Part shown: piece by piece, positions 1,925 through 12,322 of the stretch
Numbering within the stretch: position 1 is the stretch's first letter
Layout of the letters: each line of letters opens with the position of its first letter
The notes under the pieces: generated by a model
Database searches by the model: none
Seen by the model: the letters and a program-made list of their open reading frames with translations, nothing else
Told to the model about the DNA's origin: nothing
Program-made: the position numbers and the translations under genes
Virus record (IMG/VR): IMGVR_UViG_2585427782_000007
Source: a virus
Lineage: Duplodnaviria; Heunggongvirae; Uroviricota; Caudoviricetes
Strand: one strand, 5' to 3'
Length of the DNA: 14,205 bases

Positions 1925-2072
1925 ATACAGCGAACTCCATTGGTTTAGTTGGATATTTACTGTGCTGGACAAAAACGGTTTGCGGGGAAATCTTAGTTAA
2001 GTAGAATGACTGCGGGTGCTTGAGGCTATCTGCCTCGGGCATGGACACCAACGGCAGATAGAGAAAAGCCCC

Positions 2073-3921
2073 AGTTAACATTACGCGTCCTGCAAGACGC
2101 TTAACATTAATCTGAGGCCAATTTCATGCTAGACACATGTAGGTTAGCCTCTTACGTGCCGAAAGGCACGGAGAAGCAGGCTATTGTTAACACCAAGCTG
2201 TAATGTCCCCTTTGAACCATTCTAAAATGTCCCCAGACAATTCTCTGGGGGATTTTTCATGATCAAAGAGACTGTTACGATGAGTCATAAGGAACTCCAC
2301 CGACTTCAGATTATTCAGGAACAAGCTGCGGCACGCATTGGCATTTCTATTCGGCAGGTTAAACGTCTGGTGCAACGGTATAGAAATGAAGGGCCTTCTG
2401 GTCTGGTTTCCCACCGACGTGGAAAGCGTCCTAATAATTCCTTTTCTACTGAATTCAGAGCAACAGTAATTTCACTCCTCAAAGGCCGTTACGCTGATTT
2501 TGGACCTACGTTTGCGTGCGAAAAATTGCGCGAGATACACGGTTTATCTTTATCCGTTGAAACTCTCAGAAAGTGGATGATAGAAGAGGGGTTATGGCGT
2601 GAACGCCGTCGTAAAATTGCCCGTATATATCAACGCCGCATGCGACGACCATCTTACGGTGAACTGATCCAGATTGATGGCTCACCTCATGACTGGTTTG
2701 AAAATCGAGGCCCCAGATGTACACTGATCGTTTTCATTGATGATGCCACCAGTGCGTTGATGGCGTTGCGTTTTGTGCCTGCTGAAACAACCCGGGCTTA
2801 CATGGAAACCCTCCGGGGTTACCTTAATGATCATGGCGTACCGCTCGCTCTCTACTCTGATAGACACAGTATATTCAGGGTAAATAACCCAGAGCGGGAA
2901 GGTGAGCTGACCCAGTTCACTCGTGCGATAAAGACACTGGGCATCGAGCCAATCCATGCCAACAGCCCGCAGGCAAAAGGGCGGGTAGAGCGCGCCAATC
3001 AGACACTACAGGACAGGCTGGTCAAAGAAATGCGGCTTCAGAATATCAGTGATATTGAAACAGCAAATGCATGGTTGCCGACCTTTATTGAAGCCTATAA
3101 CAACCGGTTCGCTACGTCGCCTCGTACTACTGATAATGCTCATCTTGATGTGCACCATTCTGAAGAGGAACTGGGTTATATCTTCAGCCTACAGGCGAAG
3201 CGCGTTCTGTCTAAAAATCTCACTTTCCAGTACAAAAGCAGTGCGTTTCAGGTACGCAGTGAGGGCCGGGGATATCGACTTAGGCATTCGGTTGTTACTG
3301 TATGCGAGAACTTTGACGGTGAAATTAACGTTCTGTATGACGGGAAAGCGCTGGGCTGGGAAAAGTATGTTGATGGCCCGGAGCCTATACCACTGGATGA
3401 TGAAAAGAGTGTCCATGAACGAGTGGATAATGCCCGTATTGATTTACGCTCAAAATACTATGTTAAACCTAAAGCTGACCATCCCTGGCTTACGCGCCGA
3501 ACGCAAAGTCATCAGCAAGTTAAGCCCCCGAAGTTACCTAAAAAGAAGCCTGATCCCGATAAAAAAGATTGAAACCAAGATCGATTCGGTTGAGTGCATA
3601 TCCATTCATAGGGTAGATTCTTAAGTCGCGTTTCTGGTGTTCATTTTCGGGTGGTTTGTTACTTGTTTTACCGGGGATATGCCAGAAACGCGCTGAGTCA
3701 GTCTGGGCGGTGCGCGTAATGAGGCGTTATGGTAAATAGCCTATGCTAATGTCCGCTAAGAGCAAGAAGCGGAAGTTGGCAGTTTTGTGGACTGTCCCCA
3801 CAAAAGTGACTACAGAAATAGTTGCAATTCATAATTGATCATGGGTTGTCAGTTAAACTCGTGGCGATTTAAATAGACTAATTGGGAGTGCGTCCATTAC
3901 TTATATCTTGTAATGTTAACT
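2073..3921 (+). mobile_element. Putative insertion sequence carrying the DDE transposase; boundaries tentative
   Basis: Single transposase ORF 2259..3572 flanked by an exact 12-bp inverted pair: AGTTAACATTAC at 2073-2084 and GTAATGTTAACT at 3910-3921. No similarity beyond the 12 bp and no flanking direct repeat, so the ends are uncertain. Confidence 0.3.
2259..3572 (+). CDS. DDE-type transposase with N-terminal helix-turn-helix (retroviral-integrase-like core; IS481/ISNCY-like, family not resolved)
   Basis: 437-aa ORF. N-terminal HTH-like segment (AARIGISIRQVKRLVQRY), then candidate catalytic residues in VFIDDATS, LYSDRHSIF and GRVERANQTLQDRL. GGGGGA precedes ATG 2259. Confidence 0.85.
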   Translation: MIKETVTMSHKELHRLQIIQEQAAARIGISIRQVKRLVQRYRNEGPSGLVSHRRGKRPNNSFSTEFRATVISLLKGRYADFGPTFACEKLREIHGLSLSVETLRKWMIEEGLWRERRRKIARIYQRRMRRPSYGELIQIDGSPHDWFENRGPRCTLIVFIDDATSALMALRFVPAETTRAYMETLRGYLNDHGVPLALYSDRHSIFRVNNPEREGELTQFTRAIKTLGIEPIHANSPQAKGRVERANQTLQDRLVKEMRLQNISDIETANAWLPTFIEAYNNRFATSPRTTDNAHLDVHHSEEELGYIFSLQAKRVLSKNLTFQYKSSAFQVRSEGRGYRLRHSVVTVCENFDGEINVLYDGKALGWEKYVDGPEPIPLDDEKSVHERVDNARIDLRSKYYVKPKADHPWLTRRTQSHQQVKPPKLPKKKPDPDKKD

Positions 3922-4391: not shown

Positions 4392-4543
4392 ATCGTATTT
4401 CTTGTGTCATTAATTGTTTGATGTTCAGATTGTTTTCCTCGCGGGCTGGCGCGCCTCAGAAAGTAAAGCTTGTTGACAGGGGTAAACGTTCGGCAATAAT
4501 TTTCTGCCGCATGCGGGTGTTGCATAAAACGTGTTACGTTCCT

Positions 4544-4849
4544 TTATCGACAGGTCAGGTCACCGCTCACCCGCCGACGAGAAAGCAACACTGACATGCT
4601 AAAGCAAAAAATAGATGAATAAGTTGAGTTGTGCATATGTAGCCTGACCGTCACAAAGTATATGGTGTCTGTACCAGTAAGATGATGGCCGGACTCTTTA
4701 AAAACGAGCTGACCTGCACAATACAGGATGGACTTAGCAATGGCTGCTCCTGGCACAAAGCGGACAGTGATCACCGTTCTTACGACTACTTTCTGACTTC
4801 CTTCGTGACTTGCCCTAAGCATGTTGTAGTGCGATACTTGTAATGACAT
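4544..4849 (-). CDS. ydfV: YdfV-like hypothetical protein (101 aa); weak coding evidence
   Basis: Table ORF of 101 aa diverging from relB, matching remembered K-12 ydfV length and position. No SD, and its start codon lies inside the relBE operator, so it may not be translated. Confidence 0.35.
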   Translation of the reverse strand: MSLQVSHYNMLRASHEGSQKVVVRTVITVRFVPGAAIAKSILYCAGQLVFKESGHHLTGTDTIYFVTVRLHMHNSTYSSIFCFSMSVLLSRRRVSGDLTCR

Positions 4850-8891: not shown

Positions 8892-9191
8892 AAAAATTCC
8901 TTAATACTGATAACTTGGCGCACTATACACACGTTCCTGAAGAAAGCTATAGTTTTTTGATGGGGTTGAAGATGGCTGGATGTCTAAAATAAACATTGCT
9001 TCATATGTTCAACTATGCGTTAATGATTGCGTCGGTTTGAAGAACAGACGATATACGAAGTAGTTTACTAAAGCAGTTCTCATTTCAGGTGTTATTCACT
9101 TATTCCTTCTTTGAGTCTCTCCAATTAAGTACGAAGTCGTTTCTGTTATGCAAACCATTTATGCCGAAAGGCTCAAGTTAAGGAATGTAGA

Positions 9192-9407
9192 ATGTCAAAT
9201 AAAATGACTGGTTTAGTAAAATGGTTTAACGCTGATAAAGGTTTCGGCTTTATTTCTCCTGTTGATGGTAGTAAAGATGTGTTTGTGCATTTTTCTGCGA
9301 TTCAGAATGATAATTATCGAACCTTATTTGAAGGTCAAAAGGTTACCTTCTCTATAGAGAGTGGTGCTAAAGGTCCTGCAGCAGCAAATGTCATCATTAC
9401 TGATTAA
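9192..9407 (+). CDS. cspB: Cold-shock protein CspB (71 aa)
   Basis: [71 protein letters not shown]; SD AAGGAA; roughly 300-bp upstream region typical of csp leaders. Confidence 0.9.
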
Positions 9408-9688
9408 AATTCATCGCTCGTCTGTATACGATAACGAAGAAGGCTGATGCCTGAGTAGAGATACGGACAGAGTAGTGAATATTGGATCTCTTTAATAAAA
9501 AGTAAGGAGGTCCAATACATGAAACAATGGCTAGCATATTTGGCAAAATCTTAATCAGGAAAAGTATGCTAACCATTGTGGTGAAGTGCAGGTTTGCTGC
9601 ATGAATAGTTTTACAGCAGAAGCTAACTGCTGGCATGGCAAAACAAAGTGCGTAAGTGGATGACTCCCACAAAAAGCACCACAATCTC

Positions 9689-9712
9689 AAACCCGCTCAG
9701 GCGGGTTTTTTA
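9689..9712 (+). terminator. Rho-independent terminator about 280 nt downstream of cspB
   Basis: AAACCCGC-TCAG-GCGGGTTT hairpin followed by TTTTTTATT. No terminator is visible directly after the cspB stop. Confidence 0.55.
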
Positions 9713-9770
9713 TTATCTGCTTTAAATATATTATTAAAATATAAAAAATACTTGTTACTAATAAAATCAA

Positions 9771-9941
9771 TCAGGCTACAGCTTTAAGATTTGTCTGGAA
9801 TACTTTGTTGCAATGAGGGCAGATCAAAAGGGCACCTTTTTGTACTCTTGAAAAACTGTGTTCTGACTCTTGGGTGCAGTTTGGGCAGGAACATTTAACG
9901 AGATAATTACGGCGTGATTTTGAGTTTTTACGTTCTGACAT
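9771..9941 (-). CDS. Small zinc-ribbon protein (56 aa), function unknown
   Basis: Internal Met of table ORF 9771..9992 with AGGAAAAG SD: MSERKNSKSRRNYLVKCSCPNCTQESEHSFSRVQKGALLICPHCNKVFQTNLKAVA. Two CxxC pairs 18 residues apart. May correspond to a small zinc-binding Qin protein, but I cannot confirm this. Confidence 0.5.
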   Translation of the reverse strand: MSERKNSKSRRNYLVKCSCPNCTQESEHSFSRVQKGALLICPHCNKVFQTNLKAVA

Positions 9942-11716: not shown

Positions 11717-12078
11717 GGTAATATTAAATCGGAACATTTACATCGCGGAATGTAAAATTTAAATAAAAAGGACTCTTCCATGAGCCAAAATTCCTGAAAT
11801 CTTAAGGGTAAGATAAAAGGTCTTAATCAGAATGACACGTTTTATTAATAAATAAAGCTATTCTTTCATTGCTGTGTTTTTCTTTACAAAAGTAATCCTT
11901 GCTATGGGTGGTTAATCATGCGTTAATGGTGTTCTGGTTTGTTACAAATTTATCTGAAGCAGTCATTGTTATAATTTTATTATTTGTACCTCTTGAGATT
12001 TCCTTGTTGGTTTTTCTCTCTGATATTTTTTTTCGGACCATTCTGCCCAAGGGCTAATTTCTTCAAAAGGTAATAATT

Positions 12079-12291
12079 ATGTCTAACAAAATGACTGGTT
12101 TAGTGAAATGGTTTAACCCTGAAAAAGGTTTTGGTTTCATCACGCCGAAAGATGGCAGCAAAGATGTGTTTGTCCATTTCTCAGCAATTCAGAGCAACGA
12201 TTTCAAAACATTAACTGAGAATCAGGAAGTTGAATTTGGTATTGAGAACGGACCTAAAGGTCCTGCCGCTGTTCATGTAGTGGCGCTTTGA
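12079..12291 (+). CDS. cspI: Cold-shock protein CspI (70 aa)
   Basis: [70 protein letters not shown]; about 360-bp AT-rich upstream leader. Confidence 0.9.
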
Positions 12292-12322
12292 GGTAGACAA
12301 TATTACAAACCATATTCACTTT

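Follow-up and report, generated by a model that had tools for sequence, protein, structure and literature searches.

The DNA analysed here (IMG/VR record IMGVR_UViG_2585427782_000007; 14,205 nucleotides, referred to throughout as the window) is the Qin prophage of Escherichia coli K-12, to which it is 100% identical, and the element under study lies between its cold-shock gene cspB and the convergent gene ynfU, an interval for which no sampled E. coli record (RefSeq and others) has an annotated feature. An earlier note on this DNA had drawn attention to a perfect Shine-Dalgarno (SD) sequence, TAAGGAGGT, followed by an eleven-codon open reading frame (ORF) downstream of cspB. We think it probable that the interval from 9408 to 9712 is a conserved, multi-domain structured RNA, that the SD-like sequence within it is no working ribosome binding site (RBS), that the ORF is a by-product, and that the transcript ends or is cut in the linker that carries the start codon of the ORF.

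Structure, conservation and context of the cspB 3′ region

The interval 9408–9712 is the 3′ untranslated region (UTR) of cspB and part of the cspB transcript. A single-sequence fold of positions 9405–9715 has a minimum free energy (MFE) of −105.2 kcal/mol with a z-score of −7.3, and reproduces the model obtained by comparison of homologous copies. The parts of this 3′UTR are a long hairpin (P0), a variable hairpin, a linker, a core of five helices (P1 to P5, 9524–9683) and a terminator; they are listed here with the smaller features that they contain and the source of each assignment.

9409–9480 (+): P0, a long irregular hairpin, outer stem 9421–9429/9458–9467 (MFE fold)
9481–9516 (+): 14-bp hairpin AUUGGAUCUCUUUA-AUAAAAAG-UAAGGAGGUCCAAU, arms 9481–9494/9503–9516 (MFE fold)
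9503–9511 (+): SD-like 9-mer TAAGGAGGT (direct reading of the sequence)
9517–9523 (+): single-stranded linker ACAUGAA, 7 nt, containing the ATG (predicted unpaired probability 0.56–0.89)
9519–9554 (+): mini-ORF of 11 codons, MKQWLAYLAKS*, in the Qin-type clade only and absent from RefSeq annotation (direct reading)
9524–9538/9565–9579 (+): P1, a long helix with variable apical loop 9539–9564 (alignment A3, pair counts, MFE fold)
9578–9583/9677–9682 (+): P2, closing helix GUGGUG/CACCAC that encloses P3–P5 (pair counts)
9586–9602 (+): P3, hairpin GUGCAG-GUUUG-CUGCAU (100% paired, two compensatory pairs)
9614–9632 (+): P4, hairpin CAGCAG-AAGCTAA-CTGCTG with a near-invariant 7-nt loop, AAGCUAA (alignment A3)
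9645–9656 (+): near-invariant junction AAAGUGCGUAAG (alignment A3)
9656–9670 (+): P5, hairpin GUGG-AUGACUC-CCAC (99.2% paired)
9689–9712 (both strands): intrinsic terminator hairpin AAACCCGC-TCAG-GCGGGTTT with T-run, predicted to be shared by the convergent cspB and ynfU (terminator scan)

The hairpin that we call P4 and the terminator had both been recognized in the earlier note; each is present where described, and a terminator scan finds the latter too.

There are several grounds for regarding this region as a conserved structured RNA. First, it recurs widely. Distant BLAST matches place the second half of the cspB 3′ region beside an unannotated csp gene in the SSU5-like phage-plasmid Cyrano, and 3′ of a csp gene in phage PHB10. 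Scans with motif patterns (two over viral contigs, one each over species-representative genomes and metagenomes) retrieved more than 200 loci, and a BLAST search of plasmids yielded a further 58 records, of which Klebsiella accounts for 45. The hosts include Escherichia, Shigella, Enterobacter, Kosakonia, Kluyvera, Phytobacter, Raoultella, Leclercia, Superficieibacter, Atlantibacter and Pseudescherichia, and the replicons are prophages, phage-plasmids, conjugative and Klebsiella plasmids, and chromosomes of the Enterobacter group.

Second, its position is constant. Upstream sequence was long enough to judge at 213 loci; at 211 of these the element directly follows a cspA-family coding sequence, which ends 103–166 nt before the anchor motif, and the two exceptions carry IS1 and IS3-family insertions. 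Every csp gene examined that has the 3′ element also has a cspA-type 5′UTR. What lies downstream varies: the terminator and then convergent ynfU in the Qin type, a ynfU homologue in convergent orientation at a distance of about 20 nt in the PHB10 type, a co-directional ORF of 75 amino acids in the Enterobacter, Kosakonia, Kluyvera and Klebsiella-plasmid type, and unrelated genes in phage-plasmids. With csp always upstream and the downstream neighbour changing, the element belongs to the csp transcript. The earlier proposal that cspB has no terminator of its own and is probably co-transcribed with what follows is supported. The first terminator-like site 3′ of cspB found by the terminator scan is at 9586, a promoter scan found no sigma-70-like promoter on the + strand within cspB (9192–9520 included) or its 3′UTR, and csp precedes the element in every intact homologous locus. 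The site at 9586, flagged by a simple scan as a terminator, is P3, a conserved piece of the core.

Third, the helices covary. In alignment A3 (33 non-redundant sequences, five core helices, 35 pairs) 94.8% of cells are paired and 12 of the 35 pairs have changed on both sides, values reached in none of 500 column shuffles, and controls with the register slid are 22–51% paired. Both-side changes occur at six pairs of P1; P2 is 99.5% paired, with A-U replaced by G-C in six sequences and U-A by C-G in three; and one pair of P5 is U-A in the Qin type and A-U elsewhere. Outside the core, RNAalifold (17 sequences) keeps nine pairs of P0, eight of them compensatory, in its outer stem. P0 is absent from the PHB10-type clade.

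Fourth, unpaired bases are conserved as well. The P4 loop AAGCUAA is unchanged, save for two variants, in loci fetched by a pattern that left the loop free, and the junction AAAGUGCGUAAG is essentially invariant, also when unconstrained by a pattern, being degenerate only in two copies with tandem expansions. In P0 the conserved interior (9430–9457) reads GAUAACGAAGAAGG...CCUGAGUA; by eye it resembles a loop-E/sarcin-ricin motif, with GAA opposite AGUA, and, again by eye, the ACGAAGA.GG that faces CCUGAGUAG, together with the junction GUAA, is a possible tetraloop-receptor-like arrangement that could make a tertiary contact or serve as a protein site. The tandem expansions are of 8 nt, CCTGAAAG or GCATGAAA, and lie between P3 and P4 at L137 (about 4394–4634, Raoultella lignicola), L191 (445–675) and L174 (2046–2236), of which L191 and L174 have the degenerate junction AAAATATGTAAG; all three look like decaying or slippage-prone copies.

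Fifth, the signal is confined to one strand. A covariance model scores 90–211 bits when run on the csp strand and never above 22 bits on the other, with one copy in the window, and this asymmetry together with the G-U pairs indicates an RNA read in the csp direction. Finally, between clades the identity of a 121-nt core is 66–91%, against 47–68% at third codon positions of csp and about 50% in the downstream flanks, so that the core is conserved as much as, or more than, the csp coding sequence.

No Rfam 15 family reaches its gathering score in 9424–9770, nor does any in seven other loci; with the E-value relaxed to 10, the region's best matches, all below threshold, are terminator look-alikes and FourU (16.6 vs 60 bits), and ARAGORN reports neither a tRNA nor a tmRNA there. 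Structure, strand and context, as far as they can be read from sequence, together suggest that the core represents an RNA family absent from Rfam 15.

One part of the core has a competing fold. GUGC at 9648–9651 can pair with GCAC at 9676–9679, with a further 3-bp helix, in place of P2; this is pairable in every sequence, and the RNAalifold consensus favours GUGC/GCAY plus the 3-bp helix over P2. The alternative helix reaches 99.2% pairing, and all its changes are on one side of a pair. The two pairings may be alternative conformations, and a temperature-sensitive switch between them is possible.

The Shine-Dalgarno-like sequence and the eleven-codon frame

The sequence elements described in the earlier note are all read directly from the DNA: TAAGGAGGT at 9503–9511, a spacer of 7 nt (9512–9518), and an ATG at 9519 that opens MKQWLAYLAKS at 9519–9554 (codons ATG AAA CAA TGG CTA GCA TAT TTG GCA AAA TCT TAA). 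The exact 9-mer occurs once in the window; when one mismatch is permitted, 2.35 occurrences are expected by chance and one is observed. In the predicted structure, all nine bases form part of the 3′ arm of the 14-bp hairpin (−16.4 kcal/mol at 37 °C, −23.8 kcal/mol at 15 °C), and they have a predicted unpaired probability of at most 0.04, well short of the accessibility expected of an RBS. The ATG is predicted to be accessible in the linker, the 5′ strand of P1 is made up of codons 2–7, and what is left of the frame occupies the variable P1 loop.

Variation within the Qin type (93 copies in 20 haplotypes, at least 95% identical) is informative on both the hairpin and the peptide. Three of four stem substitutions, C9488U, C9490U and G9510A, keep the pairing, and the most variable positions are those of the hairpin loop at 9500–9502, so that selection appears to act on the hairpin; the 9-mer itself is found as TAAGGAGAT and TAAGGCGGT. 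Within the mini-ORF five sites vary, and every change is nonsynonymous or nonsense (W4>stop, L5P, A9V, K10I and S11T), with no synonymous one among them; this small sample gives no sign of purifying selection on the peptide. At residue 5 proline is the majority allele, and the leucine of K-12 results from T9532, which also restores one P1 pair.

Beyond these near-identical copies the SD, the ATG and their spacing are absent from the Cyrano, L103, L130, PHB10 and Enterobacter types, all of which keep the surrounding RNA, and the other clades have an unrelated hairpin where the Qin type has the SD hairpin. The earlier note had named a lack of conservation of the SD and ATG spacing in homologous loci as one of two findings that would speak against the mini-ORF, and outside the Qin type that lack is what is seen. 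Likewise, a degenerate E. coli copy lacks both SD and ATG (L147, 7720–7910 on the − strand, strain ECGI0523, CP178306.1; 100 bits). In this copy unrelated sequence stands in for P0 and the SD hairpin, and there is damage to P3 and the terminator; the core can therefore persist without the SD and the mini-ORF. A different small ORF inside the region, MNSFTAEANCWHGKTKCVSG at 9602–9664, is not conserved either: the PHB10 copy stops after 11 codons, and L141 and L142 have ATA for ATG.

With the SD paired, the frame restricted to one clade, its variation nonsynonymous or nonsense and, as described below, the dominant RNA 3′ end falling inside its ATG, the proposal of a leader or regulatory peptide, or a small protein, finds little to recommend it. 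Most likely TAAGGAGGT is a hairpin arm and no working RBS, and the mini-ORF is a lineage-specific by-product.

RNA 3′ ends and competing explanations

Published Term-seq data for strain MG1655 at 37 °C in three growth conditions (Adams et al. 2021, eLife, PMC7815308, Supplementary file 1) include a cspB-strand 3′ end, classed as 'orphan', at 1641226(−) in LB at optical density (OD) 0.4 with 604,404 average reads, and at 1641224(−) both in LB at OD 2.0 (1,233,565 average reads) and in M63 (2,464,295). Positions in U00096 convert to the window as 1,650,746 minus the coordinate, verified on two printed flanking strings, and the ends accordingly fall at U9520, the second base of the ATG, and at A9522, both in the 7-nt linker and 4–6 nt past the 14-bp hairpin. 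The same data give 1,235,725 and 3,948,680 reads for CsrB, 392,534 and 456,063 for 6S RNA, 94,833 for the cspE terminator and 56,964 for an end in the cspB 5′UTR (PMC7815308). Position 9520/9522 is the dominant 3′ end of the locus at 37 °C, with counts comparable to those of CsrB and 6S RNA, although such counts are open to ligation bias and are not absolute abundances. Between the cspB stop codon and 9520 there is no terminator, promoter-like site or listed Term-seq 3′ end. The main RNA at 37 °C therefore stops at the start codon of the mini-ORF, is capped by the hairpin, and excludes the core.

The terminator at 9689–9712 has an 8-bp stem with five G-C pairs, a 4-nt loop and the tail TTTATTATCT. 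A ynfU-strand 3′ end at 1641060(+), window position 9686, with about 1,000 reads (PMC7815308), shows that this hairpin acts as the terminator of ynfU, and no cspB-strand end is listed at 9689–9712 in LB at OD 0.4, LB at OD 2.0 or M63 (PMC7815308).

These observations are consistent with a scheme in which the linker (9517–9523) is where the K-12 transcript either ends or undergoes cutting and trimming, so as to yield an upstream RNA that is capped at its 3′ end by the 14-bp hairpin and would accumulate to a very high level. The end could be formed by endonucleolytic cleavage, or by a 3′ exonuclease that trims the RNA and stalls at the hairpin. The core would act in cis and influence how the cold-shock mRNA, or a downstream cistron if there is one, is processed or how stable it is; it may also uncouple such a cistron from csp. 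A bolder form of the proposal, which we offer only tentatively and regard as rather unlikely, is that the elements are a class of 3′UTR RNA associated with mobile ynfU-cspF-csp cassettes, whose bistable core directs processing at its own 5′ edge or binds a protein or ligand, and thereby releases a hairpin-capped regulatory or sponge RNA about as abundant as CsrB or 6S RNA.

Several points weigh against the structured-RNA reading or its parts. It is unusual for a perfect 9-nt SD to stand at the ideal distance of 7 nt from an ATG that is itself in an unpaired linker; by our estimate a window would be expected to hold the exact 9-mer about 0.1 times, and about 0.01 times if an ATG must follow at SD spacing. 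Of the 93 Qin-type copies, 90 keep both the SD core AAGGAG and the ATG (the remainder being two with TAAGGCGGT and one with W4>stop), and with retention so nearly universal some translation of the mini-ORF may occur. In addition, P2 and its alternative pairing cannot be told apart, the read counts carry the ligation bias mentioned above, and the family is narrow, restricted to Enterobacteriaceae and few lineages, so that the compensatory changes possibly stem from few evolutionary events. We regard the SD and ATG combination as unusual but not overwhelming, and the role of the motif as a hairpin arm explains it.

The suggestion of the earlier note that the region is part of a 3′UTR-derived RNA agrees with the conservation of the structure and with the abundance of a processed 3′ end. 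It is less likely, and in our view doubtful, that such an RNA acts in trans as a small RNA (sRNA), either as the upstream fragment (P0 and hairpin, to 9520–9522) or as core plus terminator (approximately 9523–9712), pairing with targets or sequestering a protein through the AAGCUAA loop or AAAGUGCGUAAG. In favour are a 3′ end that matches those of CsrB and 6S RNA in abundance, strongly conserved unpaired nucleotides and, in four clades, a U-tailed terminator after the core; however, copies of the Enterobacter and PHB10 types have no clear terminator after the core, and with no cspB-strand end listed at the terminator a species made of core and terminator is not abundant at 37 °C. A search within the window for complements of the invariant loop and junction found nothing beyond chance, and no such sRNA is reported in the literature searched.

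Less probable still is that the mini-ORF is translated in the Qin type as a switch, with ribosomes at 9519 unwinding P1, remodelling the core and altering the fate of the cspB mRNA or read-through of the terminator, and with initiation gated by melting of the SD hairpin. The exact SD 7 nt from an ATG that is predicted to be unpaired, the retention of both within the Qin type and the exact overlap of the frame with P1 are all as such a switch would have them. Nevertheless, the SD is locked in a stem that would be stabler still at the low temperatures at which cspB is induced, the other clades that keep the core have neither SD nor ATG, the variation of the peptide is nonsynonymous or nonsense only and includes a stop at W4, and the major 3′ end found in vivo falls within the ATG.

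We think it very unlikely that the core cleaves itself as a ribozyme at its 5′ edge, in the manner of HDV-like and hatchet ribozymes, and so gives the end at 9520–9522. A complex fold with invariant unpaired nucleotides, and an abundant 3′ end 2–4 nt 5′ of the first P1 pair, would suit this; no Rfam ribozyme family matches even at an E-value of 10, and two end positions across conditions suggest trimming rather than one chemical cut. Moreover, Term-seq ligates 3′-OH ends whereas ribozyme products carry a 2′,3′-cyclic phosphate, and the ends seen here are ligatable.

Least credible of all is that nothing here is functional, with SD, ATG and hairpins arising by chance in the decaying DNA of Qin, a defective prophage, or that the real gene is an ORF of 97 amino acids on the minus strand (9397–9690), across which the record of phage PhiR42_1 annotates a hypothetical protein, since the core is conserved above the neighbouring coding sequence in several genera and replicon types and the covariation is strand-specific and includes G-U pairs. 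The minus-strand ORF, which begins with TTG, is open only in Qin-type copies, the longest stop-free run elsewhere being 45–60 of 103 codons, and is probably spurious.

Neighbouring genes and relation to known RNAs

The genes in this part of Qin are quuQ (annotated ydfT), cspF (−), cspB (+), ynfU (−), the holin gene essQ (annotated essD) and cspI, in that order, and the segment 9100–10000 matches E. coli K-12 MG1655 and about 1,500 further complete E. coli genomes at 100% identity. The immediate neighbours of the 3′ element are as follows.

9031–9191 (+): cspB 5′UTR, a cspA-type thermoregulator (Rfam RF01766 match 9031–9423, 158.8 bits)
9192–9407 (+): cspB coding sequence (RefSeq annotation, ORF list)
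9771–9941 (−): ynfU, small zinc-ribbon protein, a recurrent neighbour of csp cassettes (RefSeq; Pfam PF23499)

The RF01766 match over 5′UTR and coding sequence marks the upstream gene as a cold-inducible member of the cspA family. PF23499 is matched by the ynfU homologues of both the Qin and PHB10 types; the 75-amino-acid ORF (MIKVLVFFNAESCKV...) that follows the element in other loci has no Pfam or NCBIfam family match. Elsewhere in the window Rfam identifies the sok antitoxin RNA of the hokD locus at 2014–2185 (+) and a second cspA-type thermoregulator over cspI at 11933–12318 (+); cspI has no copy of the 3′ element.

A recurrent mobile cassette, composed of a small zinc-ribbon gene (−), a cspF/H-like gene (−), csp (+), the 3′ element and the 75-amino-acid ORF (+), is seen at L236 (460–1912, Klebsiella variicola plasmid pKV1) and at L142 (1048–2518, Enterobacter sp.). 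The zinc-ribbon gene is annotated as YnfU family on pKV1, where it lies next to cspF/csp, and its counterpart at L142 is different; in the Qin and PHB10 types ynfU is instead convergent and downstream. Matches to the STnc100 sRNA (Rfam RF02076) occur in two unrelated contexts, L130 (2941–3070) and L003 (3788–3989), a few hundred bases to about 1.2 kb 3′ of the csp cassette. Several E. coli genomes have insertions of IS200/IS605-type elements and IS1 in or beside the region. In one IMG/VR contig (L033) an IS200-like element begins right after the T-run of the terminator (about window position 9713), in L022 cspB is interrupted by IS1, and L079 has an IS3-family element within P1.

The element shares features with several known systems. 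Enterobacteria make processed RNAs from 3′UTRs, for example CpxQ from cpxP and SroC from gltI. Like these, the csp element is transcribed at the end of an mRNA, shows conservation that extends past the coding sequence and gives a stable fragment after processing. Unlike them, its abundant species ends at an internal hairpin and does not run from a cleavage site to the terminator, its conserved part is a five-helix junction and not a short seed with a terminator, and it has no known seed, target or Hfq dependence. Stem-loops at 3′ ends, such as REP elements and terminal hairpins, block 3′ exonucleases, and a 14-bp hairpin 4–6 nt 5′ of the mapped end has the geometry expected for exonuclease stalling; these stabilizers differ in that, in the csp element, a separately conserved core of 160 nt comes after the hairpin and is missing from the abundant species, an arrangement for which a simple stabilizer model does not account. 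The cspA thermoregulator RF01766 is, like the 3′ element, a structured RNA of cold-shock mRNAs and occurs on the same transcripts, but it covers the 5′UTR and the coding sequence to 9423, and the 3′ element has no similarity to it.

Two further parallels concern the SD itself. STAB-SD of Bacillus thuringiensis cryIIIA is reportedly a single-stranded SD-like stabilizer of mRNA that lies in the 5′UTR and binds 30S subunits. In the csp element TAAGGAGGT is likewise a perfect SD-like sequence that lies in a UTR and precedes no productive ORF, but it is predicted to be base-paired and is located in the 3′UTR. As with leader peptides, upstream ORFs and small ORFs detected by Ribo-RET, the mini-ORF is short and has a strong SD in an untranslated region; unlike these, it is downstream of a gene, its SD is sequestered, and it is found in near-identical copies only, with no sign of purifying selection. 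In the literature searched, no paper mentions the peptide, the sequence strings or an RNA from the cspB 3′UTR. The element thus shares the logic of 3′UTR-derived RNAs and of 3′ hairpin stabilizers, and is homologous to no described family.

If this interpretation is correct, a perfect Shine-Dalgarno sequence and an ATG should not be taken as evidence for a gene, since here the motif would be explained by RNA structure. The 3′ element would constitute an RNA family not in Rfam 15, of several helices with invariant unpaired bases, tied in all cases to horizontally mobile genes of the cspA type and spanning Escherichia, Klebsiella, Enterobacter, Kluyvera, Kosakonia and their relatives. The family would also be linked to one of the stronger Term-seq signals of E. 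coli K-12, an 'orphan' 3′ end so far unexplained, and would offer an entry to the processing and stabilization of cold-shock mRNAs from their 3′ side and to the role that an abundant RNA of a cryptic prophage may have of its own.

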